The position numbers and the translations under genes are program-made. This document shows, one piece after another, positions 5,127 to 58,512 of a stretch of DNA of 64,000 nt. The stretch's first letter is position 1. Each line of letters begins with the position of its first letter. This DNA comes from a virus. Under the pieces are notes generated by a model. That model made no database searches. It was not told where the DNA came from and saw nothing but the letters and a program-made list of their open reading frames with translations. The DNA is taken from IMG/VR virus record IMGVR_UViG_3300029337_000249; one strand, 5' to 3'.

Positions 5127-5131
5127 CCGCT

Positions 5132-7543: not shown

Positions 7544-7570
7544 GCTTGAAATTCAAGGTACGGACGGATT

Positions 7571-7930: not shown

Positions 7931-8049
7931 GATTCAGAGGACACATTGGAACTACACAATGGAACATCGCAGGCCGCTTTTGTGGGAGCCTATTTGTGGG
8001 CAAGGGCAAAGGCGGCCTGCTTTGTGATACATGAAAGAGAGGACAGAAC

Positions 8050-10878: not shown

Positions 10879-10899
10879 ATCTGAATTAGGAGGGCTTAC

Positions 10900-12168
10900 A
10901 TGAAAGCGACTGCTGAACTGAAGATGCTGCCGGTGTCCGTACTTAAGCCGGCCGCATACAATCCCCGGAAAAAGCTGAAGCCGGGGGACAAAGAGTACGA
11001 GAAGATCAAGAACTCCATCACGGAGTTCGGGTTCGCAGATCCTTTGGTGGTCAATGCCGATATGACAATCATCGGCGGCCACCAGAGATTGACCGTAGCG
11101 ATGGAGCTGGGCTATACCGAAGTGCCTTGTGCGGTGGTGGACATCGACAAGACCAGGGAAAAAGCCCTGAACATTGCGCTCAATAAGATCACGGGTGCAT
11201 GGGATGATTCCCTGCTGGCTGATCTTTTGAAGGACATCGAGGATTCTAACTTCGACCTTGGCAAGACCGGCTTTGATCCCCCTGAGATCGAGACGCTGTT
11301 CAACAAGGTCCACAGTAAGGAAGTCAAGGAAGATGACTTCGATGTGGAATCGGAACTGAAGCAACCGTGCTTTTCCAAAGAGGGCGACCTCTGGCATCTG
11401 GGAAAGCACATCGTTCTGTGCGGGGATTCCACCAAAGCAGAATGCTATGACACTCTGATGGATGGCGTGAAAGCCAACCTTGTGCTTTCGGACCCTCCGT
11501 ACAATGTGGACGTGGAAGAAACCGCTGGCAAGATCCTGAACGACAACATGGGCGATTCGGAATTCTACGAGTTTCTGCTGTCGGCATTCAAACAGATGCA
11601 TGACCATCTGGCGGACGATGGCTCCATCTATATCTTTCATGCCGACACCGAAGGATTGAACTTCCGAAAGGCGTTCAAGGATGCCGGGTTCTATCTGTCC
11701 GGGTGCTGTATCTGGAAGAAGAATGCGCTGGTGCTGGGCCGCAGTCCTTACCAGTGGCAGCACGAACCGTGTCTCTACGGCTGGAAGCAGAAGGGGAAGC
11801 ACCAGTGGTATTCCGACCGGAAGCAGACGACCATATGGGAGTATGACCGGCCGAAGTCCAACAAGGACCATCCGACCATGAAGCCCATCGGTCTGATGAG
11901 CTATCCGATTCGCAATTCCACTATGACCAACGGCATCGTGCTTGATCCGTTCCTCGGCAGTGGCTCGACACTGATCGCCTGCGAAGAGACCGACCGTGTG
12001 TGCCGGGGCATCGAGCTAGACCCGAAGTTCGTGGATGTCATCGTGAAGCGGTACATCGAACACAGCGATGGTCACTACGATGATGTGTTTGTTGTCCGTG
12101 ACGGCCAGAAGCTGAAGTTCGAGGAAGTGGCAACCTTCGAGCCGGAAAGCGAGAATGCCGATGCCTGA
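10900..12168 (+). CDS. ParB-like nuclease N-terminal domain fused to N6-adenine/N4-cytosine DNA methyltransferase
   Basis: N-term ParB/Srx block (MTIIGGHQRLTVAMELGYTEVPCAVVD), catalytic DPPY motif (VLSDPPYN) and SAM-binding DPFLGSGST. Confidence 0.9.
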   Translation: MKATAELKMLPVSVLKPAAYNPRKKLKPGDKEYEKIKNSITEFGFADPLVVNADMTIIGGHQRLTVAMELGYTEVPCAVVDIDKTREKALNIALNKITGAWDDSLLADLLKDIEDSNFDLGKTGFDPPEIETLFNKVHSKEVKEDDFDVESELKQPCFSKEGDLWHLGKHIVLCGDSTKAECYDTLMDGVKANLVLSDPPYNVDVEETAGKILNDNMGDSEFYEFLLSAFKQMHDHLADDGSIYIFHADTEGLNFRKAFKDAGFYLSGCCIWKKNALVLGRSPYQWQHEPCLYGWKQKGKHQWYSDRKQTTIWEYDRPKSNKDHPTMKPIGLMSYPIRNSTMTNGIVLDPFLGSGSTLIACEETDRVCRGIELDPKFVDVIVKRYIEHSDGHYDDVFVVRDGQKLKFEEVATFEPESENADA

Positions 12169-35293: not shown

Positions 35294-38200
35294 ATGGCAT
35301 CCAGAATCCAGGGCATCACCGTTGAGATCGGCGGCGATACCACAAAGCTCTCCAAAGCACTGGAAAGTGTAAACAAATCAATTAAGGGGACGCAGTCCGG
35401 ACTGAAGGATGTCAACAAACTCCTGAAACTGGACCCCTCCAATACAGAACTGGTTGTCCAGAAGCAGAAGATGCTTAAGGATGCCATTGAAGCTACCAAG
35501 GAAAAGCTGGCAACTCTGAAGACTGCCGCACAGCAGGCCAATGAGCAGCTTGCCAATGGTGAGATCACCCAGCAGCAGTATGATGCTCTTCAGCGTGAGA
35601 TCGTGGGGACCGAACAGAATCTGCGATCCTTACAGGATCAGGCGGCTACTACCAATGCGACTCTTGCCAAAATCGATGAAGCCGGAGAAAAGCTCCAGAA
35701 CATAGGATCTTCTGTGGAAAATGTCGGCAAGAAGTTCCTGCCGGTGACTGCCGCTGTAACGGGGCTTGGCACTGCCGCAGTGAAGACGGCAGCAGATTTC
35801 GATTCCGAGATGAGCAAGGTCTCTGCCATTTCCGGTGCAACAGGGGATGACTTTGACCAGCTCCGTGCGAAAGCCCGTGAAATGGGTGCAAAGACCAAGT
35901 TCTCTGCATCCGAGGCAGCTTCGGCGATGGAATACATGGCCATGGCCGGATGGAAAACGGGGGATATGCTGAACGGCATCGAGGGTATCATGAACCTCGC
36001 AGCGGCGTCCGGTGAAGACCTCGCTACAACTTCGGATATCGTAACCGATGCTCTTACTGCTTTCGGCTTATCTGCTGCGGATTCCGGGCATTTTGCAGAT
36101 ATCCTTGCAGCTGCTTCTTCCAATGCGAACACCAATGTCAGCATGATGGGCGAGACGTTCAAGTACTGTGCGCCTATCGCCGGTGCGCTGGGGTTCTCGG
36201 CAGAGGATACCGCAGAGGCTATCGGTCTCATGGCAAACAGTGGTATCAAGGCTTCTCAGGCCGGTACTTCGTTGCGATCCATCATGAACAACCTTGCCGG
36301 TGAAGTGACCTTTGTCGGTGAGAATATTGGCGAGGCCACAATTGCTACCAGTAATGCGGATGGCAGTATGAGAAGCCTGAACGATATCCTCGCAGACTGC
36401 CGTGTGGCTTTCTCCGGTTTGACCGAATCGGAAAAAGCATCCAATGCAGAGGCACTGGTCGGTAAGAATGCGATGTCCGGTTTCCTTGCCCTGATGAATT
36501 CCAGCGAGACGGATATCAACAAACTGCGTGGTGCCATTGAAAACTGCGATGGTGCATCCGAAAGCATGGCAGAGACCATGCAGGACAACTTAAATGGTCA
36601 GCTCACCATCCTGAAATCTCAGCTGGAGGAGCTGGCTATTTCTTTTGGCGATATCCTGATGCCCACCATCCGCAAGATCGTATCTGCCGTGCAACAGTTC
36701 GTGGACAAGCTCAACAGCATGGATGAAAGTACCAGGGAAACGATCATCAAGATCGGACTACTGGCAGCATCCATTGGTCCGCTGCTCATTGTGCTTGGCA
36801 AGACCATATCAACGGTTGGCACAGCAATGCGGGGGGTCAGTTCTCTTGCAAAGGGTGTCCGGCTTCTTATCACCCATGTGGGCAGTGCCAGCGGTGTGTT
36901 CAGCAAGCTGGGTGTGGTTCTGGGTGGTCTGTCCGGCCCGGTCGTAGCAGTGGTGGCGGTCGTCGGTACACTGGTGGCGGCGTTCATGAATCTCTGGAAC
37001 ACCAACGAGGAGTTCCGTACTGCCATTACCGGCATCTGGAACGACATCGTTTCCAAGGTGAAAGGCTTCTGCGACCAGCTGACACAGCGGATCAATGGGT
37101 TGGGCTTTAATTTTAAGGATGTCACTGAGGTACTGAAGGCAGTATGGGATGGTTTCTGTCAGGTGCTTGCACCGCTGTTTGAGGGAGCGTTCCAGAATAT
37201 TGCCACCATCCTAGGTGTCGTTCTGGATACACTGCTCGGTCTATTCGACGTCTTTTCCAATGTGTTCTCCGGCAACTGGAGCGGTGCATGGGAAGCAGTG
37301 AAAGGCATCTTCTCCAGCATCTGGGAAGGTGTGAAGTCCGTATTCTCCACGACTCTTACCGCACTAAAGAGCGCACTGGATGTGTTCCTTGGTCTGTTTG
37401 GTACGGACTGGCAGACGGTCTGGGGCAGTATCAAGAGCTTCTTCGAGACCGTGTGGAGTGGAATCAGCAGCTTCTTTTCAAACACAGTTTCTGCTATCCA
37501 GAGTGTGGCAACGACTGTATTTACAGCAGTGTCTGGATTTTTTACTACCGTCCTTACGAGTATTCAGACGACCTTCAGCACCATCTGGACTGCCATTTCC
37601 ACAGCAGTTTCTTCTGTGCTGAATACGATCCATACCACGGTGACAACTGTGTGGACGGCGATTTCGACCGCAATCTCTACGGTCATGAACACCATCAGCA
37701 CCACGATCACTACAGTGTGGAACGGAATCTACAACACCATGAAACCTCTGCTGGATGCGTTCAAATATCTGTTTGAGACCATCTGGCAGGCAATACAGAT
37801 CCTGATCGGCGCAGCACTGACCGCGATCCAGACGAAGATCACTTCTATCTGGAACGCTATCGTTGCCTTTGTGACTCCGCTGCTGACCAGATTGCAGACG
37901 ACTTTCTCTACGGTTTGGTCGGCAATCCAGACAGCCATCTCCACGGTACTGACAGCAATTCAGACCGCAGTGACAACGGTGTGGAATGCCATTGTATCGT
38001 TCCTGTCTCCGCTGCTGACTGGCATCCAGACCCGGATGAGTACGGCATGGAATGCGATCCAGACGGTCATCTCGACTGTCCTTTCTGCGATCCAGTCCAA
38101 GGTTTCTTCCATCTGGACTGCCATCAGCAGCAAGATCTCCGGTGTGGTAAATGGCATCAAATCGGTGGTTTCTTCCGGCTGGAATGCCATGAAATCCACG

Positions 38201-41200
38201 GTATCGTCCCTCAGTAACAGCATCAAGAGCGCGGCTACCACAGCCTTTAACTCGATGAAATCCGGGATTTCTTCTACGATTTCCGGCATTAAGACCACCA
38301 TCACGAATGGCTTTAACAGTGCGGTCTCCTTTATCAAGGGTCTGGCTGGACAGGCATTTTCGTGGGGCTCTGACATGATCGGCAACATTGTGTCCGGTAT
38401 CCAGTCGAGGATTCAGGATGTGGCAAGTGCCGTATCGGGAGTGGCGGATCGTATCCGTTCCTTCCTGCACTTCTCTGTGCCGGATGAAGGACCTCTGGCA
38501 GATATGGAAAGCTGGATGCCAGACTTTATGCAGGGTCTGGCAAACGGCATCACGACCAACACCAGCCTTGTGACTGCGGCGGCAGAGAACCTGTCCACAA
38601 CGCTGTCTACCTCCATCACCAACTCCATGAGGGGAGTGGAGCAGGCATACAGTAAGAGCTGGGCAGCCATCAGCCAGACGGTGAAGACCGGAACGGCAGG
38701 TGTAAGTGCCGCGATGAGATCCGCATGGAGCTCCATTACGACCAGTACCACGAGCACATGGAACAGCATCAAGACCACCATCCAGACCAGCTTTGCGGCG
38801 GTGAGATCCAATGTGACCTCTGCGACAGCGGTAGTTAAATCTTCCATGACCAGTGCATGGAATGCAGTGAAGTCGCTGACAACGACCAGCTGGAACGGAA
38901 TCAAGAGCGTTATCACTACAGCATGGAACGGAATCAAGTCTCTGACTACTTCTGCGACTGCTTCTGTAAAATCTTCCATGACAAGCGCATGGAACGCAGT
39001 GAAAACTCTGACAAACACCAGCTGGAATGGTATCAAAACAGTCATTACGACAGCATGGAACAGCATCAAGTCTCTTACGACTTCTTCTGTCACAGCTGTC
39101 CGCAGTACGGTCACGAGCAGCTGGAATTCCCTGAAATCCACCACGACCTCTGCTTTCAACGGCATCAAGTCCACGGTGTCTTCGGCAATGTCCAGCCTGC
39201 GCAGCACGGTTTCTTCTGGTGTCGCAAGTATCAGGAGCAGCTTTAACTCGCTCGGTTCGATTGCTTCTTCGGCATACCGCTGGGGTGCAGATATCTGTTC
39301 CCAGATGGCGGCAGGTGTCCGGGCAGCGGCTAGTTCCGTGATCGCAGCGGCAGAAAATGTCGCAAGCAGGGTTAGAAGTCTGTTGCATTTCTCTGTACCA
39401 GACGAAGGTCCTCTGTCCGATGCAGATACCTATATGCCCGACTTCATGAAGCTGCTGGCAACCGGCATTAAGAAAAATGTCAAGTCGGTGGTGAAAGCCG
39501 TGCAGGGACTTGCTGGGTCTATGAGCAGCAACCTCACGACCCCGGTAGATTCTCTGGGCGACTGGATGGATTCCGTGGTCGGCAGTTTTGCCACCACGAT
39601 CAAGAAAAGTCAGAGCGGTATCGGTAGTGCTGCAAGGGATGTGGGCAGCGGTATCCAGTCCCAGTTGATGTCCGGGCTTTCCGGTCTGAAAACACAGTTC
39701 CAGCAGCTCTGGACTGACCTGCAGGGTATCACCAAAACCGCAGTCGGTGGCATGAGCGATGAAGTGAAGCAGGGTTTTGCGGATATGAAGGATTCCATTG
39801 GTGAGCTGAGCTCTCAGACCAGTTCCCTTGGGAATGCGATCCGTAGCCTTGGCGATACCTTCAACTCGGATTTCCTAAAGAGCCTGGGCAACGGCATCAG
39901 CAAGGTCGGTGACACGGTCAATACGGTCACGGGGCTTGTGGACAAGCTCGGTTCCATGAAGAACACCATTGGAAACCTTGGAAGTACGATGCAGAACCTC
40001 GGCAATGTTCTCGGCACAGAGAACGGCGGCGGTCTGCTGTCCAACATCGGCAGTTTCCTGTCGAAAATCGGCAGTGCAGATGGCGGTCAGATTGTGTCGA
40101 ACTTTGGCAACCTGATCTCTGGGTTGACTTCCAAGATGGGCGGTCTCGGAGAAGGCATCACTGGCATTATCTCGAAGCTGGGAAGCCTTAGCTCCAGCGG
40201 TGGGGGAATCCTGTCGAATCTGGGCGGACTGCTTTCCGGTGTGGTATCGAAGATCGGTGGTTTAGGCGGCAGTCTTTCCGGGCTTCTGTCTGGTGTGGGT
40301 TCCACATTGGGCGGAATTGCTGGTTCTGCCGGCTCCGCAATCGCAGGACTGTTCGGTTCGGTTGGCACGACTGTATCCAGTCTGGCTGCTGGTGCGGGAT
40401 CGGCTTTGGCTGGTATCGCTTCCTCGGCTGGAGGCGTGCTTGCTTCGGCAGGCACAGCACTGGCCGGTCTGGCCGGTCCTGCGGGTATCGCAGTGGCAGC
40501 AGTCGGCGGCATCGGTCTGGGACTGACCGCTCTCTGGAAAAACTGCGATGGCTTCCGGGAGGGTGTGACGAATATTTGGAACAAGGTCACTTCTGTATTC
40601 ACGAACGGTGTCAATGCCATCAAGAACGGAATCTCCAATGCGGCATCTGCCATCGGCAATGTGGCATCGTCCATCTGGGGCAGTATCAAGAATGTGGCTT
40701 CCTCGGCGGTCAGCTGGGGCAAAGACATCGTTGGCGGTATCGCCGGAGGTATCAAAAAGGGCGTCAGCTGGGTCGGCAATGCGGTCAAGAGTGTGGCAAG
40801 CGGTATCCGCTCGTTCCTGCACTTCTCGGTACCGGATGAAGGACCTCTGGCAGATGCGGACACCTATATGCCGGACTTCATGAAGCTGCTTTCCGGCGGC
40901 ATCAAGAAAGGAGAAGGCAGTCTGATCAGCCAGATCAAGTCGATGGCAGCAAAGGTACAGCAGGGCATGGAGGGCATCAGCTCTTTCAGTCTGCCGGAAC
41001 TGACCCTGCCGCACTTCGATGGCTCTGGCTGGAACTTCCCGCGGGCAGCTCTGGCCGGAGGCGGTACCACCCGGACGACCAACCTTGGCGGTGTGTATAT
41101 CACGGTCAATGGCTATAACGCCCGGAACGATGATGAACTGGCACAGACCGTTGCCGATAAGATCAACGGCATGATCCACGAGGATGATTCAGTCTTCAAG

Positions 41201-44656: not shown

Positions 44657-47600
44657 ATGTCGGAATATATCGGAAACCGAATCGTCCCTCGCCATGATGG
44701 TGTCTGGGACAAAGCAAAAGAGTATGAGCCTCTTACGATTGTGTATGAGGAATCCACAGGCGACAGCTATATGAGCCGGAAACCTGTGCCGGCCGGAACG
44801 CTTTTGTCCCAGGAGGAATACTGGGCGATGTGTTCCCGGTTCTCGGAGCAGATGGCTCTGTACCGTCAGAATACGGCAGAAGAAGTGGAGCAGTTCCGCA
44901 AGGATACTGCGGCAGATGTAGAGCAGCTTCGTACAGATACTGCATCAGATGTGGCAGCCCTGCGCAAGATGACCGCACAGGATGTAGCGGATATCACCCA
45001 GAAGGTCGATGCAGCGAACAGTGCAGTTGCAGCCAGTAAGTCCGAGATGGATAAGACTACAGAAACACTGAAAGCCCAGATCAATGCCAATGTCAAGGCA
45101 TCTACGGACAAAAATGCCAACTATGCACAGGAGCTGGTAGATGCCCGTGTGGATGATGAGGGGAAGACTTATCCCACAGCCGGTGATAATATCCGTGCAG
45201 TCGGCAGGGTGCGTTCCATGCAGAATATCATGAAGAACTGGGTGATCAAAAATGGTTACGCAAACCAGAACGGCAACCTTGTAGCTTCGGAAAGCTGGCG
45301 CGTGGCGCACATGGTCCCGGTCAGCGGTGATGCGATTCTGGTGGACGGTCAGTTCGGCTATATGAGCGGCCGGGATGACTATAACAACGTGGTCTGCTAT
45401 GACATGGACCGTAAGTTCCTCGGTGGCTGTTTCCGGGCAGAGAGCGGCAAGGTCTATGACAACTATGTGATCACGCTGCTTCCGAATACCCGTTTCATCT
45501 CTGTCACCACCAATGAAAAGCTGTTCTCGAAGCTCTCGGTGTACCTCTATGACAACATGCTCCCGATGAGATTGCTGTCAAATTACGCAACAGGCTGGCA
45601 GTGGATGAACGGCAGCGTGGATATCAGGTTCACGGGCAGCAAGGTGACAGTCACATTCCCGGAGGGAAAGAGTGTATATGTCTGCCGCCGTACAAATGGT
45701 ACACAGTACGAGCAGACGAAACTGGTGGCGGAAAACAGTACCTCGTTTGACTTTGCAGTAGTGGGAAAATGGTGGGCGATCTACTATGATGGTGCGGAAG
45801 CATCCGCAAACGAGACGGGAGAAAAGACAGAAGTCCCTGTCATTAAGGTGGAAAATACAAGCGGCGATAGCTGGGGCGATCTATTCACAAAGGGCCGCTT
45901 TGTGTTTGCGGTCTTTTTTGACTGGAATGTGGTGTACGCAGCTCCTTCGAGTAGCGGTACAGTCATCAACGGGATCGATTATGGCAATCCAGCCAAGATT
46001 GCGAATACTGCGATGACCTGGCACAAGTACCGTTCAGCAAAGATGTTCCTCGCTACAGGCCAGTTTGCGATCGATACGGTCAACCGCACCATTCAGGTCA
46101 CGAAACGTATCCTGGCGGTTGTCGATAACGGTGCTTACTACTGGATCAGTGCTAGTGGGGAGCCGGTACCGATGTTGGATAGTACGGAAGCAGAAAAGCA
46201 TCACATGCTGATCCTTGCCTATGACTCGTCCATAGATCAGATCAATCTTTACAACACTGCACAGTTCCGGGCATTGGGAGTAAACGGCTACTATATCGCT
46301 GCATGGTATGAAAACCATTTCTGGTATCCGCACATGGGTTCTTCTTTCAGCGTTGTGCTGGATGGCACAGCTTATAAGGCTGGTGAGCTTTTCGATGAAG
46401 AACGGCGTGATTCCTATATCGAAAAGAAGTATGAGGACCGCTTCCAGCAGCTCCGCACGGATCTTGCCGGTAAGGATTCCCGCCATATGTATCTGGCAAG
46501 CGGCGGTATTACCATTGACCAGGATGGCGGTACGATCCAGGTCAGTACCAAGTGTCTGGGTGTTCCGGATACGTTCCACTATGAGTGGATCATGGCAGGC
46601 GATCCGGTAGAGATGGCATTTAACACACCCAGCTCGACATTTGGTATGCCGATGCGCATCCTCGCTTATGATGCCGGTACGAAAACCATCAATCTGTACG
46701 ACACCAGCCTGTTCCGAAAGTTGGGTACGAATGGTTTCTATATTGCATCCTGGTATCAGAGCAAGCTGTATAATCCGCACATTCACCCGGATGTGAAGTT
46801 CATTGTGGGCGGTAAGGAATACAAAGCGGGTGATCTCTTCGCAGATAACGCGGCATCTTTCATCCCGAAGCGTATCACGGATTATGTGCAGAAAGCCATT
46901 ACTCCGGCTGTAGAGGATGACATCGTGACCCCGTCCCACTGGGACTGCATGGAGGGACGCCAGCTTTCCATCTTCTTTGACTGTCTTTCCCGCCACGATG
47001 GCAAGGAAAATCTGTATGTGCTCGCCAGAGGCACGAATGCACCGAGCCTGACCCGGAACGAGTACTGCATGAACTACACGCCAACGAAGGACAGTACGGA
47101 TTTTGCACTGACCGTCCGCCGTCTGGATGAAGATGACTGCCATACGGTATCGTCCAAACCTGTCCAGGTCAGGGTCCACCATAAGCTGAAGGACAAGCTC
47201 ACGAAGAATATCTGCATCTGTGGAGACTCTCTCGTGGACAATGGTTCTGTGGCAACGGAAGTGTACCGTCTGCTGGCAGAGGATAATGACTGCGTGATCC
47301 ACCAGCTGGGAACGAGAGGACCGTCTGGCGGCAAGCACGAAGGACGCGGCAGCTGGACCTTTGCCCGGTATCTGGCAGACACGGATTACGCCGGCAAAAC
47401 GAATGCGTTCTGGGACAAGATCAAAGGCCGTCTGGATTTCCAGAAATACTGCGAGACCAACGGCTATGAGGGCATCGATTACTTCCTGATCGCACTTGGC
47501 ACCAATGATGTGTCACAGGGCACTACACTGTACCGCACGGAAGCAGAGGTGCAGAAGTTCGTGGATCAGGCGAAGCAGTTCATCGATGCGCTGCTGGATA

Positions 47601-47962
47601 AGGAAACGGGCTTCCCGAATTGCAAGATCGGTATCGGCCTTTGCGGACCCGGCTCGGATTATTCTTATCAGTGCGGTTCCAGCATGGGTATCTTCCATAT
47701 GAGCATCAACACGCTGAACCTTGCACTGATCAAGGCATTTGATGCTGGCAAGTACCGCAAAAACGTGACCTGTTTTGCCCACGGTCTTCGCACGGACCGC
47801 CGTCTGGCATTTCCGTATTCGGACAAGCCGGTGACAAATCGGTTCACGGAAACCAGCCGGACGCTGACTAACAGTATCCATCCTTCCGCAAGGGGCTATC
47901 AAGCATGGGCAGACGGATATTACTGCCAGATCCGTGCGTGGCTGACGGAGGACAGTAAGTAA
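44657..47962 (+). CDS. tail fibre/receptor-binding protein 1 with C-terminal SGNH (GDSL) hydrolase domain
   Basis: N-terminal anchor MSEYIGNRIVPRHDGVWDK shared with fibre 2; coiled-coil DTAxDVxxLR repeats; C-terminal ICICGDSLVDNG ... LGTND blocks. Confidence 0.75.
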   Translation: MSEYIGNRIVPRHDGVWDKAKEYEPLTIVYEESTGDSYMSRKPVPAGTLLSQEEYWAMCSRFSEQMALYRQNTAEEVEQFRKDTAADVEQLRTDTASDVAALRKMTAQDVADITQKVDAANSAVAASKSEMDKTTETLKAQINANVKASTDKNANYAQELVDARVDDEGKTYPTAGDNIRAVGRVRSMQNIMKNWVIKNGYANQNGNLVASESWRVAHMVPVSGDAILVDGQFGYMSGRDDYNNVVCYDMDRKFLGGCFRAESGKVYDNYVITLLPNTRFISVTTNEKLFSKLSVYLYDNMLPMRLLSNYATGWQWMNGSVDIRFTGSKVTVTFPEGKSVYVCRRTNGTQYEQTKLVAENSTSFDFAVVGKWWAIYYDGAEASANETGEKTEVPVIKVENTSGDSWGDLFTKGRFVFAVFFDWNVVYAAPSSSGTVINGIDYGNPAKIANTAMTWHKYRSAKMFLATGQFAIDTVNRTIQVTKRILAVVDNGAYYWISASGEPVPMLDSTEAEKHHMLILAYDSSIDQINLYNTAQFRALGVNGYYIAAWYENHFWYPHMGSSFSVVLDGTAYKAGELFDEERRDSYIEKKYEDRFQQLRTDLAGKDSRHMYLASGGITIDQDGGTIQVSTKCLGVPDTFHYEWIMAGDPVEMAFNTPSSTFGMPMRILAYDAGTKTINLYDTSLFRKLGTNGFYIASWYQSKLYNPHIHPDVKFIVGGKEYKAGDLFADNAASFIPKRITDYVQKAITPAVEDDIVTPSHWDCMEGRQLSIFFDCLSRHDGKENLYVLARGTNAPSLTRNEYCMNYTPTKDSTDFALTVRRLDEDDCHTVSSKPVQVRVHHKLKDKLTKNICICGDSLVDNGSVATEVYRLLAEDNDCVIHQLGTRGPSGGKHEGRGSWTFARYLADTDYAGKTNAFWDKIKGRLDFQKYCETNGYEGIDYFLIALGTNDVSQGTTLYRTEAEVQKFVDQAKQFIDALLDKETGFPNCKIGIGLCGPGSDYSYQCGSSMGIFHMSINTLNLALIKAFDAGKYRKNVTCFAHGLRTDRRLAFPYSDKPVTNRFTETSRTLTNSIHPSARGYQAWADGYYCQIRAWLTEDSK

Positions 47963-48013
47963 AACGGCGTTATGTCGGGAAAGGAAACAATATGATGACT
48001 CGTCAGAAAATTC

Positions 48014-48026
48014 GGGGGGGGGGGGG
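48014..48026. repeat. homopolymeric G13 tract in the fibre1-fibre2 intergenic region
   Basis: Thirteen consecutive G residues 101 nt upstream of fibre 2 start codon. Confidence 0.8.
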
Positions 48027-48126
48027 TACTATGTAACCCTTGATTTCCCCAAGACAGGACCTCCCAATCTGCTGGATAAACCGATAGTAGTTGTAGCCGG
48101 AATTGTCTGGCAGAAGGGAGAATCCT

Positions 48127-50409
48127 ATGTCTAAATTTATTGGAAGAAGAATTGTTCCGAAACACGATGGTGTATGGGATATCAATAAGGAATATGAAGA
48201 ACTCAGTATCGTTCTGGATAAGGCGTCCGGTGAGAGCTATATCAGCAGAAAGCCTGTGCCGGTCGGTACTGCAATCTCGGATGAAAGTTACTGGATGCAA
48301 TACAGCCTTTACAGTGCACAGATCGCAGAGGCTGTCAAGGAAATGGAAGATACAGAAGCACGTCTCACCCAGTATGTAGATACCGCAGAATCCAACATGA
48401 ACAGTCGGGTGAATTCTGCTGAAAGCCTTACTAATAGCAACAAGGCAGAGTTGAATAGCCGTATGGATACGTTGGACAAGCGACTGGATGCTAATGTGTC
48501 TGCTTCGACTGACAAGGATAAGGACTATGCAGCAGAAGTTGTGGATGCAAGAGTAGATGATGAGGGAACGAAATACGGTTCTGTCGGTTCCCATATTCGA
48601 GCAATTGGAAGTGGCAAGGGTATTTTGAAAGGTGCAGTAAATGGAAGCCGCCTGTCGTTCTTGGACATTACTCCAGAACTGGTTTGGACTGCAGATAAGT
48701 ATATTTCGAGAAAATATGGTGGGCTAGATAATTTCTCTCAGGGCTCAAATGTCTATTTTGCCACGTTGGATTATATTCCATTTCCATATGGAGGCTGCTG
48801 GCTTCAGGTATATTCTGCCATGTCCACAGTTGAAAGCGATAAATCGGGTATTGCATTTTATGATGCAAATAAGAAATTTATCAGCGGAAGCGATTACAAT
48901 CGGGAAACTAAGAAACTGGCATTTCGCAGAATTCTCTGTCCAGATGGAACTGCTTATATGCGCATGACCTGTATGGGGCAGGACAATCTCGATGGCGTGG
49001 GTATCTGGTTGGATGATTATAGAATCTCAGTGGGGCATCTGGTGGATCGTGCGGTAACACATGAAAAACTGGCAGAAAAAAGTGTTGAAACGGATAATCT
49101 TGCGGATGAAGCGATAACATCAGAGAAACTGTGTGACAACGCTGTGCAGGTAAAAAATGCTGCCTTTTTGGAAATCCCGCTGGAAATTGTTTTGACACCG
49201 GATTTGTATATTGCGCGTGCAAAGGGTGATTTGCGGACTTATACACCGGGAACAAACACCTATTTTGCAACAGAGGACTATCTGCCGTTCCCATATGGTG
49301 GAAGTAAATGCCTTTTACGCGCAAGTATGAGTACAGCTTCCAATGATGTTTCAGGTCTTGCTTTTTATGATCAGGACAAAAAGTATATTTCAGGATTGAA
49401 GTACAATCAGGAAAAGAGTGGTATTTTAAGCTACACGGATTTTATCTGCCCCAAGGGTACTGCGTATATCCGCCTGACCATGTATAAAGAAAATTTGAAA
49501 GATTTTGCTAAGATTTGGTTTATGGATACGGTTGTATCTACCGGAAAGGTACAGGATGCTGCGATTACTACGCAGAAAATTGCTGATGAAGCAATCACAA
49601 AAGACAAATTGGAAAAAGATATCCAAAAAAGACTGACAGCAGAGATCAATGATCTGTTAGGTTTGAATCTCTCAGATAATCCCCTGGAACGGATTCGAAA
49701 TGATGCTGGTTTAATGACCGTATTTCGTCATGTGGGCTGCATTGGTGACAGCCTTGCAAGCGGAGAAGCAGTATACAAAAAAGTCGATGGCACCACAGGA
49801 GGGAAGGATCTGTTTGAATATTCCTGGGGACAGTATCTTGCTAGAATGACCGGGAATACCTATTACAACTGGTCTAAGGGTGGACTGCGTTGTGATACGT
49901 TCCTTTCCAGTTCGCTTGCAACGGAGTGCTTTGATGGAAATCATAAGTGCGAGGCCTATATTATCGGTCTTGGACAGAATGAAAACAATCGAAAGTACAA
50001 GATTGGTACGGTGGAAGATATCAATCTCGGCGATTACACAAAGAATCCAGACACCTATTATGGCAATTACGGAAAGATCATTCAGAAGATTCAGGAAATG
50101 CAGCCGAAAGCTAAAATTTTTATCCTGACTGACCCGTTAAAATCTGTAGAAAATGCTGGCTACAATTCAGCAGTTCGGGAGATTGCAGGAATATTTAAGA
50201 ACGTCTATCTGGTTGATTTGTATACCTATGGAACAGCTTTGTATAATTCCGGCTTTCTCTATCAGCAGAAACGTGGCGGTCATTACAATGCAGTCGGGTA
50301 CTTTATCTGTGCCATGATTATTTCTACCTATATTGATTGGATCATGAAGAAGAATCCGAATGAGTTCCGTGAGATTGAGTTTATTGGATTGGACAATAAA
50401 TTCTATTAA
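48127..50409 (+). CDS. tail fibre/receptor-binding protein 2 with C-terminal SGNH (GDSL) hydrolase domain
   Basis: N-terminal MSKFIGRRIVPKHDGVWDI paralogous to fibre 1; C-terminal GCIGDSLASG and IIGLGQNE blocks; AGGGAG RBS. Confidence 0.75.
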   Translation: MSKFIGRRIVPKHDGVWDINKEYEELSIVLDKASGESYISRKPVPVGTAISDESYWMQYSLYSAQIAEAVKEMEDTEARLTQYVDTAESNMNSRVNSAESLTNSNKAELNSRMDTLDKRLDANVSASTDKDKDYAAEVVDARVDDEGTKYGSVGSHIRAIGSGKGILKGAVNGSRLSFLDITPELVWTADKYISRKYGGLDNFSQGSNVYFATLDYIPFPYGGCWLQVYSAMSTVESDKSGIAFYDANKKFISGSDYNRETKKLAFRRILCPDGTAYMRMTCMGQDNLDGVGIWLDDYRISVGHLVDRAVTHEKLAEKSVETDNLADEAITSEKLCDNAVQVKNAAFLEIPLEIVLTPDLYIARAKGDLRTYTPGTNTYFATEDYLPFPYGGSKCLLRASMSTASNDVSGLAFYDQDKKYISGLKYNQEKSGILSYTDFICPKGTAYIRLTMYKENLKDFAKIWFMDTVVSTGKVQDAAITTQKIADEAITKDKLEKDIQKRLTAEINDLLGLNLSDNPLERIRNDAGLMTVFRHVGCIGDSLASGEAVYKKVDGTTGGKDLFEYSWGQYLARMTGNTYYNWSKGGLRCDTFLSSSLATECFDGNHKCEAYIIGLGQNENNRKYKIGTVEDINLGDYTKNPDTYYGNYGKIIQKIQEMQPKAKIFILTDPLKSVENAGYNSAVREIAGIFKNVYLVDLYTYGTALYNSGFLYQQKRGGHYNAVGYFICAMIISTYIDWIMKKNPNEFREIEFIGLDNKFY

Positions 50410-50538
50410 ATTTCCACCGTCCCTGACAGACATACCTCCAAAATGTCTGTGAAACGGTGTTCATTATAGAAGGAGTATACACAAGGCGGCATTGACCGTC
50501 TATTTTTATGCCCGGATTGGGCAGGAAAGGACAAGATT

Positions 50539-50952
50539 ATGCAGAATGTGATCGACAAGATTGAATGGATGTTCGCAGGTCTGGGTGGTTTTCTGGGCTG
50601 GTTCTTCGGTGGGTTTGACGGCTTCCTGTATGCACTTGTAGTGTTCGTGGTCTGTGACTACTTCACCGGGGTGCTTGCGGCAGCAATCAAGCATGAGCTT
50701 TCTTCTGAAGTTGGCTTTAAGGGCATCGCCAAGAAGGTGTGCATCTTTGTGCTTGTTGGGATTGCCAACATCATTGACACACAGATCCTCCAGAATGGAG
50801 CTGCCATCCGTACAGCGGTGGTGTTTTTCTATCTGGCGAATGAAGGTCTGAGCTGCCTCGAAAACGCAGCCGTTATCGGTCTTCCGGTGCCGGAGAAGCT
50901 CAAGGAGATGCTGGCACAGCTGAAGGAAGAAAGAGCGAATAAGGACGAGTAA
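50539..50952 (+). CDS. holin (phage_holin_4-like, 3 TM)
   Basis: Small protein with TM helices (FLGWFFGGFDGFLYALVVFVVCDYF...) and charged C-terminus, upstream of lysis genes. Confidence 0.85.
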   Translation: MQNVIDKIEWMFAGLGGFLGWFFGGFDGFLYALVVFVVCDYFTGVLAAAIKHELSSEVGFKGIAKKVCIFVLVGIANIIDTQILQNGAAIRTAVVFFYLANEGLSCLENAAVIGLPVPEKLKEMLAQLKEERANKDE

Positions 50953-51813: not shown

Positions 51814-52116
51814 ATGAATGAAAAGTTCATGGCAGAAGATGTGTTAAGACCGTATGGCATTACGCTGTACTATAAGGGATGTGAGTATCTGAGGGATGCG
51901 ATCGTCCTGCATTGGCATCGGCCGGATCTGAAACCGTGTCAGCTCTTACAGCTTGTTGCAGATCAGAAGGGGGTTAAGAAGAGCGGTGTCCTCAGTGCCA
52001 TTTCCACGATTTCTAATGTGGCGTGGGAAGTGAATGGGATAGGCGCTGAAAAGCCGATGTCAACCATGAAGTTTGTCTGTAGGATACTGGAAGAAGCAGA
52101 CAGGAATAGAGAATAA
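51814..52116 (+). CDS. stand-alone Spo0A C-terminal (DNA-binding) domain protein
   Basis: GITLYYKGCEYLRDAIVL...SAISTISNVAWEV...KFVCRILEEA matches Spo0A_C (GVPxHIKGYxYLREAI...AIEVAW...); AAGGAG RBS; no receiver domain. Confidence 0.7.
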   Translation: MNEKFMAEDVLRPYGITLYYKGCEYLRDAIVLHWHRPDLKPCQLLQLVADQKGVKKSGVLSAISTISNVAWEVNGIGAEKPMSTMKFVCRILEEADRNRE

Positions 52117-53646: not shown

Positions 53647-53816
53647 AAACAGTCCCCGTCCTTACCGGGCGGGGCATACATATGGTGCAGATAAGACAAT
53701 AATCCACCAGATTATTCTCCGTCTTTCTGTATCGGAATTACTTGATAATATCACGAAACAGAGGGAATATGTGACTGCCCATAGAGAAGAAAACGGGCAG
53801 GAAAGGAGCGAAAACT

Positions 53817-56177
53817 ATGAGTACTGGTACGGATTTCCTTGCAAATCTGCAGAAAAAGACTGTAAAGAATACAGTACAGCAGAAACAGCAGAAGAGAGTA
53901 AATGCATCTGCTGTGGATGTTTCGGCTTTACTGGAAGCCGCTCTTGGGAAAAAGAAACCTGTGGAAGCTGTGGCAGATGTCCGTCAAAGTACGGATGCTG
54001 CCACAGCTTCTTTTTTACCACTGGCTGATACGCACCAGGGCAAGTCTACTCAACAAAAGCCCAAAAACGCATCAGATAAAAAACAGACACCCCAAAAATC
54101 AAAAGACATCGTGGATGCCGGTATCACAGCTCTTATCCAGAAGGCTCTGGATGCCAAAAAGGTCATGGCAGAGCCGGACATTGCAGAACGGCTGCAGAGC
54201 AGTATGGAGAGTGAGTTTACGAAGCTCTTCACACCGGAAGAACCGCAGGATAACAAGTTCGTTTCGACAGCGACCTTCCGGGCTACCAAAAAGAAAGCCG
54301 GAACCCTTAATGTGGCAGCTTACATCCGCGTTTCTACGGACATGAGCGACCAGGAAAACTCCTATGAAACGCAGGAAAAATACTTTAACCAGCTGATTGA
54401 AAATAATCCGGCATGGAATGCAGTCGGTGTGTACTCCGATTACGGCATCTCCGGCACTTCCAAGGAAAAGAGAACCGGATTCCGCCGACTGATGCGTCAT
54501 TGTAAGGACGGGAAGATCGACCGCATTGTGTGCAAGTCCATATCACGATTTGCCCGAAACACGGCTGACTTTATGAGTGCACTGGATGTCCTGCATGACT
54601 GCGGGGTAACGATTCTGTTCGAGAAAGAAAATCTGGATACGGCAGACCCGACCAGCGACTTCATCCTTACGACACTGGCAGCCATTGCACAGGAAGAAAG
54701 CCGCAGCATTTCCAGTAACATCCGGCTGGGGCAGAAGATGCGCTTTCCGAAGGGGGATGTTCCAAACAAGATCATGTACGGATACCGCTACAATGGGAAG
54801 ATGGTTACCTCCGAGAGCGGATATGAGTATAAAGATATTGAGATCGTTGAGGAAGAAGCCAGGGTCGTCCGGCGCATTTTCCATGAAGTCGTGGAAGGGA
54901 AAGCCTATACGGAGATTGCGCGGGGACTGAACATGGACAAGATTCCGGCTCCTGTCACCGACGCAGTGAGAGTAAGAAAGAAAAAATCCAAGAAAGGGCA
55001 GTTAAACAGTGATCTGCTGGATGGATGGACAGGCGGGAATATCACGCGGATCGTCCGCGCCGAGCGGTACATGGGTGCAGTCCTTATCCAGAAGAAGTTC
55101 ACATCGGATTACCTGACACATGAAGTACGGGACAACAAAGGCGAAGTTCCTCAGTATTTTGTCCGGAACCATCATCCGGCAATCGTTGACGAGGACCTGT
55201 TTGAAAAGGCACAGGAAGTCGTAAAAGTAAACAGCGATTTATATAACAGGACAAGATCCGGAAAGAAGCCGAGAGCGTTTTCCCAAAGACTAATCTGCGG
55301 GGAGTGCGGTCGCTTTTTCCATGTGACAAACGGAAATGGGAACTATCCCATCTGGCGGTGCCCGACGAGCAGCCGGACGACAGGAAAACGTATCTGCCAT
55401 GCAGAAAAAGTATACGAGGAACAGGTTGTCCGAGCCTTCCGTAAAGCAGTCCTGGAGAGGTTCCGGCTGACGCTTAAGCCCATCCATGACAACGTGGCTG
55501 TGGCAGACATCATGAGCGGACGGTTCAAAGAGCAGTATGACAACTTCACCCCGGAAGCAGATTCTTTTGTAAGCCAGATGCTTGCACGGCTGGAGAGCAT
55601 TCAGAAGCTGGATTTTATGGAACGCGACCGTGCTTTTTATAAAAAACAGATTGCCGCAGCCCACACCAGTGTGGAAAGCACCAGTAAGAAGATCCGGCTC
55701 CTGAAAAGTCAGGTGGATGTGATGCAGACCCGTCTGGAACTTCTCGGTGACGAGATGATCGACCCTGCTTCTATTGAGGAGAAGAAAAAGCTCATTGAGA
55801 AACTGGAGCGTGATATTCAGAAGGACACGGACACTGAGCAGAAGCTGACCGAACAGCTCGACTATATGGAAGACTACTGGGAAGAACTGGAGGGCGACTA
55901 TGAACGAAGGGAAAAGGCAATCGAGTGGATGAAGCAACTTCCGGCGGGGCGGGATGGTACGGTGGCCTTTCTAAATGGAGTGACCGAAGAACACTGCAAG
56001 GCCTTCCTCCTCTCCATCACGATCCATTCACCGCTGAAGTTTACGGTCCACTGGTTCGATGACACCAAGACCGAGGTAGAGATGGATTCCAATATTGAAG
56101 ATTACCGCAATACCGCAAGCTATTATGACGGGCATACGATGCGCGACGGCAGCCAGCGGAAGAGGCATGTAAGATAA
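53817..56177 (+). CDS. large serine recombinase 1 (786 aa) with ~160-aa K/Q-rich N-terminal extension
   Basis: Resolvase catalytic domain (VAAYIRVSTDMSDQENS...SISRFARN), recombinase domain, zinc ribbon (CGECGRF...WRC), coiled coil. Confidence 0.88.
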   Translation: MSTGTDFLANLQKKTVKNTVQQKQQKRVNASAVDVSALLEAALGKKKPVEAVADVRQSTDAATASFLPLADTHQGKSTQQKPKNASDKKQTPQKSKDIVDAGITALIQKALDAKKVMAEPDIAERLQSSMESEFTKLFTPEEPQDNKFVSTATFRATKKKAGTLNVAAYIRVSTDMSDQENSYETQEKYFNQLIENNPAWNAVGVYSDYGISGTSKEKRTGFRRLMRHCKDGKIDRIVCKSISRFARNTADFMSALDVLHDCGVTILFEKENLDTADPTSDFILTTLAAIAQEESRSISSNIRLGQKMRFPKGDVPNKIMYGYRYNGKMVTSESGYEYKDIEIVEEEARVVRRIFHEVVEGKAYTEIARGLNMDKIPAPVTDAVRVRKKKSKKGQLNSDLLDGWTGGNITRIVRAERYMGAVLIQKKFTSDYLTHEVRDNKGEVPQYFVRNHHPAIVDEDLFEKAQEVVKVNSDLYNRTRSGKKPRAFSQRLICGECGRFFHVTNGNGNYPIWRCPTSSRTTGKRICHAEKVYEEQVVRAFRKAVLERFRLTLKPIHDNVAVADIMSGRFKEQYDNFTPEADSFVSQMLARLESIQKLDFMERDRAFYKKQIAAAHTSVESTSKKIRLLKSQVDVMQTRLELLGDEMIDPASIEEKKKLIEKLERDIQKDTDTEQKLTEQLDYMEDYWEELEGDYERREKAIEWMKQLPAGRDGTVAFLNGVTEEHCKAFLLSITIHSPLKFTVHWFDDTKTEVEMDSNIEDYRNTASYYDGHTMRDGSQRKRHVR

Positions 56178-56211: not shown

Positions 56212-58512
56212 ATGACAAGACAAAAAGTGGATGTGATCCCCGCCAGTGTGCGCTCGGTACAGAACGGCGGGCAGCTGAAAAGCCAGAGCAACATCCGTGT
56301 GGCGGCTTACTGCCGTGTTTCCACGGGAGATGAGAGTCAGCAGACTTCCTACACGACACAGAAAGCATTCTACAAAGACCTCATCACCCGGAAGCCCGGC
56401 TGGATTTTTGCCGGCATCTACGCGGATGAAGCAAAATCTGGTACGAACCGGGAACATCGAGAGGAATTCAACCGCATGATAAAAGATGCGATGGATGGAA
56501 AGCTGGACTACATCGTTACAAAGTCCATTTCCCGATTTGCACGAAACACTATTGACTCCCTGACCTGTACCCGTGAGCTTCGGCAGCTGAAGCCGCCCGT
56601 GGGTATCTATTTCGAGAAAGAGAACATCGACACACTGGATGCCAAAGGTGAGCTGATCCTTACGATTCTTTCTGCACTGGCACAGGATGAGAGCCGTTCC
56701 ATTTCCGATAACATCCGATGGAGCATCCAGAAGAAGTTCCAGTCTGGTGTCCCGCATATCAATCTGAAACGGATGCTGGGATATGAGCTTGGGGCAAATA
56801 AGCAGTGGGTCATCGTGCCGGAGCAGGCAGAAATCATCCGGTACATTTTTGACCGCTTCGTGAAAGGCCAGACGGCGAATAAGATCGCACTGGAGCTGAA
56901 CCAGATGGAAAAGTTCACGGTCAACGGAAAGAAATGGAGTGCCAGCTCGATCCTGATCGTCCTGCGGAATGAGAAGTATGTGGGCGACATCGAGATGCAG
57001 AAGACCATCACCAAAGACTTCCTTACCCACCGTTCAAGCATCAACAAGGGCGAAGCACCCCGCTACTATGTGAAGAACCATCATGTGGGTATCATCGACC
57101 GTGTGACTTGGGACAAAGTGCAGACCATGCTGTTCGAGAAGCCGAGGGCAGACATGACGAAAGGCCCCGGCAAGAAAAAGGTAAAGAGCATTAAGGGTTC
57201 TCCGTTTGGAAACCTGCGCTGCGGTGCGATCCTGGAGAATGGGCCGGATGCCGGAAAACCCTGCGGGGAAGGATTCTTCCGTACAACCTACACGGGTGTG
57301 GCAAATGGTTACAGCGATGAGCGGAGTCTTAAGGCGACTGGTGAGGATACCGGAGAGTATCTGGAAAAATACACTTATTCGTATCCCGTTTGGCGGTGCA
57401 AGCGTAAGGTCGGGGAGCGGGACGGTGAGCCGCCGAAGAACGGTTCTCCCGACCAGAAAGCGTATTGCCGGAGCAAGAAAGGCTGCATGTCAGATGAGGA
57501 AAAGGAAGCTGCAAACAAGCGCTGCCCCTCAGAACGCTACCATGAGTGTGCGCTGGAGCAGAGTTTCATGGAACTGCTCTACAGCATGAAGCGTGATTTT
57601 GAACAACACGGAGATGCCTCCATGATCGTGACGATGTTTGACAATGCCTATGAGCAGGCTGTCCGGCTGGCGAATAACAACAGCATCTCGGTGCAGAGGA
57701 TGGCAACGGTGGAAAATCAGATCAAGGAGATGGAAGAACGCCTGCAGGATGCCATCAGCCATCAGGTGGCGGCGCTTCGGGAAGCTGCACTGGAACAGAA
57801 TGTGGAACTGAATGAAGCCCTTTCCAACGGGGAGGTGACTATTGACGACATCGACCTGGACATCCGAAGCGGACTGACACCAGGAAGCATCGGAGTGAGC
57901 TTCTATGGGACAGAAACGGAGGAAGGCTCGGAAGCCCAGATTTATACAGAGCTTGTGAACGACCTGCAGGAACGGCTGAAAACACTCCAACAGGAAAGGC
58001 AGACGATAGAGGAAGAACAGGGCGTGCTGGCGATCATGAAAAAGAACTTTGAATATTTCCTTGCCTGCCTGAAAGAACTGCCGGATACCAATGCAGGCGG
58101 AATGCCGTTAAGAGTCAACGGCCTGGATGTACAGGGAAGTCTTCTGAGAGATGTAGACGGCAAGCCCATCGAGGGCCGGGTGTCTGCCGTGACCAGGGGC
58201 AGGCTCAAGCTGACTCCTGAGCGGATCGCAGAAGCACCAGATATGCTCCACTTTGAAAAAGGTATCTACTGTGCTTTTGTTGAGAGCGGAGTACTGCAGG
58301 GGGATGTGGCAACCTATAAGACAAACTTCGGTGTGACACTGACCTCAAAGGGCAACCGCAGAACGCTTGACAGCTTCATGGGCTATAAGCGGAGTGATAT
58401 GGACGGCAATGTGGTCTATGTGGATGCTCCTTATAAGGTGTACGGATTCAGCATTCAGTACCGCAGATACCTGACAACTGCAGCGAAGCGCGAGAGGGAA
58501 GAAGCGGTGTGA
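56212..58512 (+). CDS. large serine recombinase 2 (766 aa)
   Basis: VAAYCRVSTGDESQQTS...SISRFARN catalytic domain, recombinase domain, Zn ribbon, coiled coil; 34 nt after recombinase 1. Confidence 0.9.
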   Translation: MTRQKVDVIPASVRSVQNGGQLKSQSNIRVAAYCRVSTGDESQQTSYTTQKAFYKDLITRKPGWIFAGIYADEAKSGTNREHREEFNRMIKDAMDGKLDYIVTKSISRFARNTIDSLTCTRELRQLKPPVGIYFEKENIDTLDAKGELILTILSALAQDESRSISDNIRWSIQKKFQSGVPHINLKRMLGYELGANKQWVIVPEQAEIIRYIFDRFVKGQTANKIALELNQMEKFTVNGKKWSASSILIVLRNEKYVGDIEMQKTITKDFLTHRSSINKGEAPRYYVKNHHVGIIDRVTWDKVQTMLFEKPRADMTKGPGKKKVKSIKGSPFGNLRCGAILENGPDAGKPCGEGFFRTTYTGVANGYSDERSLKATGEDTGEYLEKYTYSYPVWRCKRKVGERDGEPPKNGSPDQKAYCRSKKGCMSDEEKEAANKRCPSERYHECALEQSFMELLYSMKRDFEQHGDASMIVTMFDNAYEQAVRLANNNSISVQRMATVENQIKEMEERLQDAISHQVAALREAALEQNVELNEALSNGEVTIDDIDLDIRSGLTPGSIGVSFYGTETEEGSEAQIYTELVNDLQERLKTLQQERQTIEEEQGVLAIMKKNFEYFLACLKELPDTNAGGMPLRVNGLDVQGSLLRDVDGKPIEGRVSAVTRGRLKLTPERIAEAPDMLHFEKGIYCAFVESGVLQGDVATYKTNFGVTLTSKGNRRTLDSFMGYKRSDMDGNVVYVDAPYKVYGFSIQYRRYLTTAAKREREEAV

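Follow-up and report, generated by a model that had tools for sequence, protein, structure and literature searches.

A length-variable poly-G tract in a leader reading frame as a candidate translational switch for an accessory tail-fibre gene of temperate gut phages

What is a run of 13 guanines doing between two putative tail-fibre genes of a temperate phage? The DNA in question is the IMG/VR virus record IMGVR_UViG_3300029337_000249, of which a stretch of 64,000 nucleotides, here called the window, was analysed. Phase variation by slippage at homopolymers is well established for bacterial surface genes, and an original prediction, made from the letters of the window, had proposed that the tract is such a switch for the second of the two genes, or else an assembly artefact. 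The comparisons described here give strong evidence that the tract is a selected and hypermutable regulatory element. With less confidence, they lead us to favour one way of working, in which the number of Gs sets the frame of a short leader open reading frame (ORF) and only one of the three frames, the read-through frame, unmasks translation of the second gene, fibre 2. The idea of a switch therefore stands, on the comparative evidence of variation, retention, frame layout and a hairpin, while the mechanism first suggested does not, a change of leader frame taking the place of a change of spacing. The tract and the two genes are arranged as follows.

44657 to 47962, plus strand: fibre 1, a tail-associated protein of 1,101 amino acids; anchor domain at the N-terminus, GDSL/SGNH esterase at the C-terminus.
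48014 to 48026, plus strand: the hypermutable G13 tract, with C before and TAC after; G7 to G15 in relatives, with G10 as the most frequent length in the window's own lineage (lineage A).
48127 to 50409, plus strand: fibre 2, an accessory protein of 760 amino acids; anchor domain, SGNH esterase and PHROG tail-fibre matches.

The two proteins are 44% identical over their first ~170–196 residues (E 5e-42), and both end in the GDSL/SGNH esterase domain at the C-terminal side. The position and the length of the tract, and its location between paralogous genes with a common N-terminal anchor, agree with what had been predicted, except that fibre 1 and fibre 2 are 164 nt apart and not 140 nt. The tract is an outlier in its own genome. 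The longest other G run in the window is 6 and C runs reach at most 5, and none of 100 dinucleotide-preserving shuffles attained the tract's five overlapping G9 matches (mean 0.6 matches).

To what extent does the tract vary? Lineage A was sampled by a protein search and a flanking-DNA search in which tract length was left free, giving 28 sibling contigs besides the window (94–99.7% identical to it; from IMG/VR, ENA metagenomes and two isolate genomes); the censuses of lineages B and C, introduced below, were likewise independent of tract length. In these 29 contigs the tract is G7 in two, G8 in one, G9 in five, G10 in 13, G11 in two, G12 in four and G13 in one, which is the window, and the remaining contig has an interrupted allele, G8TGG. 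Identical 176-nt flanks are found in 18 contigs, and the tract still ranges from G7 to G12 between them. When contig pairs at most 0.05% divergent over up to 3 kb around the tract are compared, tract length is unequal in 39 of 49, and two groups with zero mismatches read G7/G12/G7/G10/G11 and G10/G12/G11/G12/G9. One sibling (L207) has no mismatch to the window over 4.5 kb, yet carries G10 instead of G13. With the more distant relatives included, the same site has G7 to G15 in 59 contigs from seven lineages, and at least G7 in all but the one interrupted allele (L029). An uninterrupted homopolymer of at least about 7 nt that differs in length between near-identical genomes is what characterises contingency loci. 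The comparison of sibling prophages that the original prediction had suggested thus gives lengths of G7 to G15 on otherwise identical DNA, in line with the view of the tract as hypermutable.

Long G runs are error-prone, and of the 29 length-independent contigs of lineage A none has a longer tract than the window with its G13 (one later contig has G15), which could point to a sequencing or assembly error. But a tract at the same site, from G7 to G15, is seen in isolate genomes and in IMG/VR, ENA and Logan assemblies from many projects; its existence is therefore no assembly artefact, and we consider this explanation barely credible. An error of about 1 nt in length is possible, and the 13 of the window is an assembly value with this uncertainty. 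Another G13 was seen in an unrelated viral contig (L100, around position 866, minus strand), beside an AT-rich palindrome flanked by CTCCCTCCCTGACA / TGTCAGGGAGG; it comes without a leader ORF or an anchor-domain gene and is a different kind of element.

What the length could change becomes apparent from the reading frame that runs into the tract.

47980 to 47987, plus strand: Shine-Dalgarno-like (SD) sequence of the leader, AAAGGAAA, 4 nt upstream of the leader ATG.
47992 to 48036, plus strand: leader ORF as read at G13, MMTRQKIRGGGGTM and a stop; a short frame, predicted OFF.
48034 to 48036, plus strand: frame-closing TAA, which ends the leader ORF at G7, G10 and G13.
48041 to 48043, plus strand: frame-closing TGA, which ends the leader ORF at G9 and G12.
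48132 to 48134, plus strand: read-through TAA, which ends an ORF of 45–47 codons at G8, G11 and G14 and overlaps the start of fibre 2 (ATGTCTAA).

The leader begins with ATGATG at 47992, 29 nt after the stop codon of fibre 1, and enters the G tract. G13 puts the window in a short frame, probably the OFF state. From the end of the tract to the ATG of fibre 2 there are 100 nt, with four intervening stops in the frame of the fibre gene. A fusion of the leader ORF to fibre 2 was also considered, and in the window the intervening stops rule it out in any frame. The read-through frame of lineage C coincides with that of the fibre gene, but a TGA and two codons lie between them. Gene callers report the leader ORF in 5 of 5 long-phase (read-through) contigs and in 0 of 20 short-phase contigs. 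That the tract is placed where it could control fibre 2, as originally proposed, holds in this form: as read from the DNA, it lies within a leader ORF whose frame would decide whether an anti-SD box further downstream is read through.

A few tract alleles are atypical. L029 has G8TGG, L223 has G6AGG (the second interrupted allele, found among 25 additional lineage-A contigs), and in L125 and L126 the tract is G8 and G7, respectively, followed by A. Of these four, L223 is in a short frame and the other three are in the read-through frame. Slower switching would be expected of an interrupted tract, and such alleles may be semi-locked states.

Downstream of the tract, the start of fibre 2 is predicted to be folded into a stable structure.

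48052 to 48132, plus strand: hairpin enclosing the SD and the AUG of fibre 2; predicted −33.7 kcal/mol, z −4.4.
48060 to 48065, plus strand: C box CCTCCC (anti-SD), predicted to pair with the fibre-2 SD; Pro-Pro in the read-through frame.
48116 to 48120, plus strand: SD of fibre 2, GGGAG; predicted unpaired probability 0.003 at every tract length tested.

The predicted pairing joins CUCCC, within the C box, to GGGAG. Not one of 200 shuffles folds equally well. Compared with all 52 SD-bearing gene starts in the window, the start of fibre 2 has the most negative structure z, and the accessibility of its SD core is 0.003 against a median of 0.51. An SD-sequestering hairpin is predicted in every one of the further lineages as well, with z values of −3.4, −5.7, −4.0/−4.2, −6.8/−5.9, −7.2 and −4.2. 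The helix sequences differ by lineage, the spacer between SD and AUG pairing with a lineage-specific segment upstream of the C box, and a plain MAFFT alignment across lineages has compensatory double changes in 4 of 11 consensus pairs. An Rfam search with the leader returned nothing near significance. A second strongly sequestered SD exists in the window, at the start of a gene at 53771–54028 directly upstream of the first serine recombinase (unpaired 0.005, z −3.4). In one public assembly (L017) the contig ends within the leader hairpin in an untrimmed Nextera adapter, CTGTCTCTTATACACATCT.

The main evidence for a function, taken from sequence comparison, is that the same architecture recurs in diverged lineages. 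Six further lineages were collected by way of the shared anchor domain, an architecture-only DNA pattern and a broader anchor alignment; a repeat scan for lineage B gave no new contigs. Their fibre-2 anchor domains are 28–87% identical to that of the window. Tract lengths and the number of contigs in the read-through frame are as follows.

Lineage A: 29 contigs, lengths as given above, 4 of 29 in the read-through frame.
Lineage A': 2 contigs, G7 and G9, 0 of 2 in the read-through frame.
Lineage B: 7 contigs, G8 to G11, 1 of 7 in the read-through frame.
Lineage C: 15 contigs, G7 to G15, 6 of 15 in the read-through frame.
Lineage D: 4 contigs, G8 to G12, 1 of 4 in the read-through frame.
Lineage E: 1 contig, G10, 1 of 1 in the read-through frame.
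Lineage F: 1 contig, G12, 0 of 1 in the read-through frame.

Where the flanks suffice, the gene order is the same: Tal, a p222-like gene, fibre 1, leader, fibre 2 and holin. Exceptions concern the gene upstream of the leader, which has no match to fibre 1 in L048 and other C-terminal domains in L158 and L145. In L145, the contig of lineage E, this C-terminus is by eye metallophosphoesterase-like (GGD, GNHD, GHCH) and not an SGNH esterase, and the leader cassette may follow different enzyme-bearing tail proteins.

In all seven lineages the leader has its own SD and an ATG or GTG from which it reads into the tract. It starts 15–47 nt after the stop of the upstream fibre, and the tract is reached after ~8–18 codons. 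The 5' part of the leader occurs in at least eight unrelated or diverged versions, including MMNRQKIR, MKKKRYIEKMF, MKQRYIEKYS, MLENRVFGQA, MNKNDNMKEIF, MNMNDNKKKK, MNKNVIMVKIF, MLHFSVLKR and others. Beyond the tract, two frames in each lineage stop within 3–31 nt, before the C box, and exactly one is open across it. In shuffles of the post-tract segment, this layout, with the two closed frames ending within 17 nt, arises by chance with a probability of ~0.08–0.10 per lineage (four tested). In five of the seven lineages, the C box codes for Pro-Pro or Pro-Pro-Pro in the open frame. Directly after the C box this frame ends in lineages B and D (TPP*, SPP*), and in lineages A, A' and C the read-through stop lies in the stretch from 17 nt upstream to 14 nt downstream of the AUG of fibre 2. 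A conserved leader peptide was considered and rejected, since between lineages the read-through peptides have only the Pro-Pro at the C box in common. In two cases, L076 and the protein P0009, unrelated sequence has taken the place of the usual upstream sequence, with the change right at the tract; the 5' parts of their leaders read MLENRVFGQA and MLIKSIKSRKF. It looks as though modules were also exchanged by recombination at this point.

How often, then, is the read-through frame found? All three frames occur, and 13 of the 59 surveyed contigs are in the read-through frame. Gene callers call the leader of 45–46 codons only in the long phase, so exact long-phase peptides could be used for a larger sample. 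For the main haplotype, contigs with such a peptide number 170 for G8, 645 for G11 and 23 for G14, and for the haplotype of the window 73, 112 and 3, respectively. Raw contig counts of leader peptide and fibre 2 are not comparable because most contigs are short. The frequency was therefore estimated from collection blocks whose longest carrying contig is at least 10 kb, by comparing the four main peptides with the two main fibre-2 alleles; contigs found via neighbouring proteins were excluded, being biased to the long phase by de-duplication. This gives ~19% read-through (939 blocks for the four peptides against 4,954 for the two fibre-2 alleles), where one third would be expected if the frames were equal.

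A mechanism that would join these pieces can be outlined as follows. Slipped-strand mispairing during replication would alter the number of Gs, often and reversibly, and this number would set the frame of the leader beyond the tract. Ribosomes in the read-through frame would cross the C box, melt the hairpin and expose the SD and AUG of fibre 2, which would then be ON. In lineages A, A' and C they would terminate near the AUG of fibre 2, within the interval given above; in B and D, termination at the Pro-Pro-stop right after the C box would hold them on the hairpin. In both cases fibre 2 would be translated. In the two short frames the hairpin would stay closed, and little or no fibre 2 would be made (OFF). 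A lysogen or a burst would accordingly yield virions of two kinds, some carrying the second anchor-domain fibre and some lacking it, a form of bet-hedging of adsorption specificity. Since such a switch would be translational, the holin and lysin genes downstream would be expressed in both states. The leader layout and the variation in length come from the sequences and their comparison, and it is from these that we infer an ON/OFF effect on the translation of fibre 2.

Tract length could also act without any reading frame. The G tract might pair in cis with the C box, as an anti-anti-SD, or with a C/U-rich RNA in trans, so that its length would tune access to the SD. The tract is always G and complementary to the C box, and in partial transcripts that end before the 3' arm of the hairpin it is predicted to pair with the C box in 4 of 4 lineages tested; the variable G repeat in the leader of Helicobacter pylori tlpB, the target of RepG, works in this way (PMC8295292). 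Under equilibrium folding, however, the SD remains paired (predicted unpaired probability at most 0.06) for tract lengths from 0 to 15 in four lineages. A purely thermodynamic rheostat is insufficient, with SD accessibility constant across G numbers, and a rheostat of any kind leaves unexplained why the SD and start codon of the leader are retained through at least eight 5' versions and why two frames are closed in each lineage. We regard frame-independent tuning as unlikely. Equilibrium folding ignores co-transcriptional folding, and the tract may make a kinetic contribution; G tract, C box and SD resemble regions 1, 2 and 3 of an attenuator. A change at the RNA level is distinctly unlikely to be the whole explanation: polymerase slippage or ribosomal frameshifting on the tract would give a roughly fixed fraction of read-through at any DNA length and set the ratio of fibre 1 to fibre 2. 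Runs of at least nine identical bases are known slippage sites, which a long G run would offer, and the leader ORF, the single open frame and the hairpin would serve such recoding equally well. But the DNA length is highly polymorphic and all three frames are populated, so any switch is at the DNA level at least. Recoding and DNA switching are compatible, and slippage could make the OFF states leaky.

The tract might instead be a mutational by-product at a module boundary, a neutral hitch-hiker or recombination junction with no regulatory role and a length that varies by slippage alone, as the exchange of upstream sequence exactly at the tract in L076 and P0009 and the movement of the entire leader with a mobile cassette (see below) could suggest. 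An unselected homopolymer should decay, and only one of 59 (L029) is interrupted and none is shorter than G7, in leaders that otherwise cannot be aligned; among the 25 additional lineage-A contigs there is again one interruption (L223). The neutral reading also leaves aside the leader ORF, frame stops and hairpin that are conserved together with the tract, and it appears improbable. Very improbable is that tract length acts on promoter spacing or terminator strength before fibre 2. In lineage A the tract is directly followed by TACTAT, which is similar to a −10 hexamer, but there is no usable −35 at any tract length, other lineages do not keep the motif (it is TAAAAC in B and TACTCC in C and D), and a transcriptional block would silence the co-oriented holin and lysins downstream. 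No sigma-70-like promoter or intrinsic terminator was found on the plus strand of the gap between fibre 1 and fibre 2, and no promoter-like element around the tract is conserved across lineages. The spacing of a promoter, terminator or leader element, by which the original prediction had explained the switch, therefore gives way to the reading frame. Inversion and a diversity-generating retroelement (DGR) were also considered and are ruled out by the absence of the repeats they need. A search for an invertible segment found only short, imperfect inverted repeats at chance level and no small invertase next to the fibres, the recombinases downstream of them being large serine recombinases. There is no template/variable repeat pair, the sole long direct repeat being the anchor-domain paralogy, and no reverse transcriptase was found among 18 proteins scanned, in a scan that was not exhaustive.

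It is worth noting that several observations sit uneasily with a switch by leader frame. Read-through is the minority state, and G10, the most frequent length, gives a short frame; more ON genomes might be expected than are seen if fibre 2 is important. The excess of short frames would suit a switch that consensus assemblies mostly show in its OFF state, with read-through as the presumed ON state. Homopolymer lengths from short-read assembly may err by about 1 nt, and individual phase calls could shift with them. Read-through stops vary from 69 nt before to 14 nt after the AUG of the fibre gene between lineages, which implies that the unmasking step is not identical everywhere. In three contigs of lineage C (L103, L114 and L123) the SD of the leader is weakened (GAAAGAAAAA instead of GAAAGGAAAA). 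Within lineage A, hairpin changes are one-sided and structure-neutral in 4 of 5 cases, with no double compensation; covariation here is uninformative because the siblings are too similar. Finally, the modelled pairing of the nascent G tract with the C box could add a frame-independent effect or substitute for the effect of the frame. As a separate observation, L103, L114 and L123 carry G9, G13 and G15, two of them among the three longest tracts seen, which may be a coincidence.

How does this arrangement compare with known systems? It resembles the contingency loci of Neisseria, Haemophilus, Campylobacter and Helicobacter in its slippage at a G run of at least 7, its length polymorphism and its modulo-3 logic. 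In the classical loci the tract lies inside the regulated gene or in a promoter spacer, whereas here it lies in a leader ORF. The nearest precedent is found in the phages of Campylobacter, whose polyG tracts reportedly lie inside the coding sequences of the affected genes, receptor-binding proteins included. The tract in the window does not lie within the coding sequence of a structural gene, four stops intervening, although the outcome may be analogous. Common to both cases are a poly-G tract in a phage, slippage, a link to receptor-binding proteins and phenotypic diversity in phage populations. The present case differs in that the tract ends 100 nt before the fibre gene, in a separate leader ORF, and would have an indirect effect through SD unmasking, and in that the phage is temperate, with Gram-positive gut Clostridia as hosts. 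The hypermutable tracts of the Campylobacter phages (Fletchervirus) are those of Sorensen et al. 2021 (Cell Rep 35:109214), a study cited in PMC12823448 and PMC10877375.

In its predicted working the leader resembles those of ermC, cat and cmlA, where a short leader ORF precedes an SD held in a hairpin and the position of the ribosome decides whether the SD is exposed. Here, too, a short SD-bearing ORF lies upstream and the SD of the regulated gene lies in a predicted stable hairpin. The erm and cat leaders answer drug-induced stalling, whereas here a heritable change of frame would act, with no inducer implied. H. pylori RepG/tlpB (PMC8295292) likewise combines a length-variable G repeat in the mRNA leader with post-transcriptional control of the downstream gene, but that system needs a trans-acting C/U-rich small RNA and is graded by length, in contrast to a leader ORF with frame-specific stops. 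The outcome, stochastic alternation or diversification of host-recognition proteins, is that of the G segment and Gin of phage Mu, the C segment and Cin of P1, and DGRs; unlike these, the present locus has no flanking inverted repeats, adjacent small invertase or template/variable repeat pair. Full-text literature searches turned up no case of a downstream gene gated, via a hairpin, by a homopolymer within a leader ORF, and none of polyG switching in phages of gut Firmicutes. In the literature searched, homopolymer phase variation in phages is described for Campylobacter phages only, with the tract within the coding sequence. A 2025 long-read study lists host-range heterogeneity in gut phages as an open question and states that no link between polyG tracts and broad host range had yet been made there (PMC12823448).

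The leader does not occur alone in these genomes. It forms an optional unit with fibre 2.

~47964 to 50409, plus strand: optional cassette of leader and fibre 2, 2.4 kb, between fibre 1 and holin.

One-fibre siblings, with a fibre 1 that is 97–99% identical, are without both leader and fibre 2, and in them fibre 1 directly precedes the holin. Many one-fibre phages have a Tal 92–99% and a fibre 1 93–99% identical to those of the window, and fibre 1 is found in all relatives, the one-fibre ones included. In the one-fibre junction ...AAATAA is joined to ATTTCCACCGTCCC (exact boundary by alignment); in the window the junctions read TAA / AACGGCG..., followed by leader and fibre 2, and ...TATTAA / ATTTCCACCGTCCC. 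The GC content of the cassette is ~43.5%, against 52% phage-wide. By this alignment, the tract is part of the cassette and the whole leader travels with it.

The phage itself is a temperate siphovirus with replication genes, TerL, a portal, an HK97-type capsid, a tape measure of 1,984 amino acids and three large serine recombinases. In the window a Prophage_tail/Tal protein is followed by fibre 1, fibre 2, and a holin with two lysins. The assignment of both genes as tail fibres is based on this position (Tal before, holin after), the PHROG matches of fibre 2 and the enzyme domains, and is to be understood as a prediction. Megablast and blastn searches of a cultured-phage database with the fibre region gave no match.

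A number of further observations concern the genes around the fibres. Three consecutive large serine recombinases (Resolvase and Recombinase domains) lie downstream of the lysis module, at 53817–56177, 56212–58512 and 60941–62782, which is more than a single integrase needs. Between the two lysin genes lies an ORF of 100 amino acids (51814–52116) that only some of the siblings have; it contains a Spo0A_C-like domain (E 3e-6). At the start of the holin (~50505–50541), several siblings (L061, L063 and others) have an in-frame N-terminal extension, MPKWAGKDKIM-QNVIDK..., resembling dual-start holin/antiholin pairs; the spacer of the window has 1 nt more, which puts the upstream ATG out of frame. 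In L054 and L056 (~4956–8089) the homologue of fibre 1 is split into two overlapping ORFs of 209 and 843 amino acids; a frameshift, a recoding site or an error of sequencing could account for this. Many long minus-strand ORFs lie opposite annotated plus-strand genes, for example at 46034–47338, 37478–39388 and 10345–11871. These antisense ORFs are probably an effect of codon usage and can mislead an ORF-based reading of the genome. An antisense gene in which the tract would be read as poly-C (47920–48594, minus strand) was rejected: it has no Pfam or PHROG match, its extent ranges from 79 to 763 codons among relatives, and the frequency of long antisense ORFs throughout the window genome weakens this reading further.

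Where is this phage found? In public assemblies the main fibre-2 allele occurs in 7,355 blocks and the exact fibre-2 protein of the window in 1,048; by these allele counts, the phage is very common in the human gut. The main fibre-2 allele (P0047) is labelled MULTISPECIES [Clostridia] at NCBI. Two sibling prophages, L031 and L032, are found in isolates of different families, Blautia faecis DFI.3.66 and Faecalibacterium intestinale CLA-AA-H281. Their fibre 2 is 98% identical, and they have 0 mismatches over 3 kb to other siblings. A near-identical prophage in two families suggests either an unusually broad lysogenic host range or contamination.

As a tentative extension, rather less probable than the leader-frame switch itself, the locus may be a heritable, reversible translational relay found throughout the family, in which ribosomes coming from fibre 1 would enter the leader, the tract would gate the accessory fibre, and bursts would carry one or two receptor specificities. 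If this is true, bet-hedging by such a relay would help to explain near-identical prophages in different Clostridia families (Blautia and Faecalibacterium). Even without this extension, a leader-frame switch that works as proposed would offer a simple, testable genetic handle on host-range heterogeneity in gut phages. Annotation and phage engineering would also be affected, a consensus genome showing one of three expression states. The switch would differ from the described cases in three ways: a tract in a leader ORF that acts by translational unmasking, a portable cassette that carries it, and its presence in temperate phages of Gram-positive gut anaerobes.

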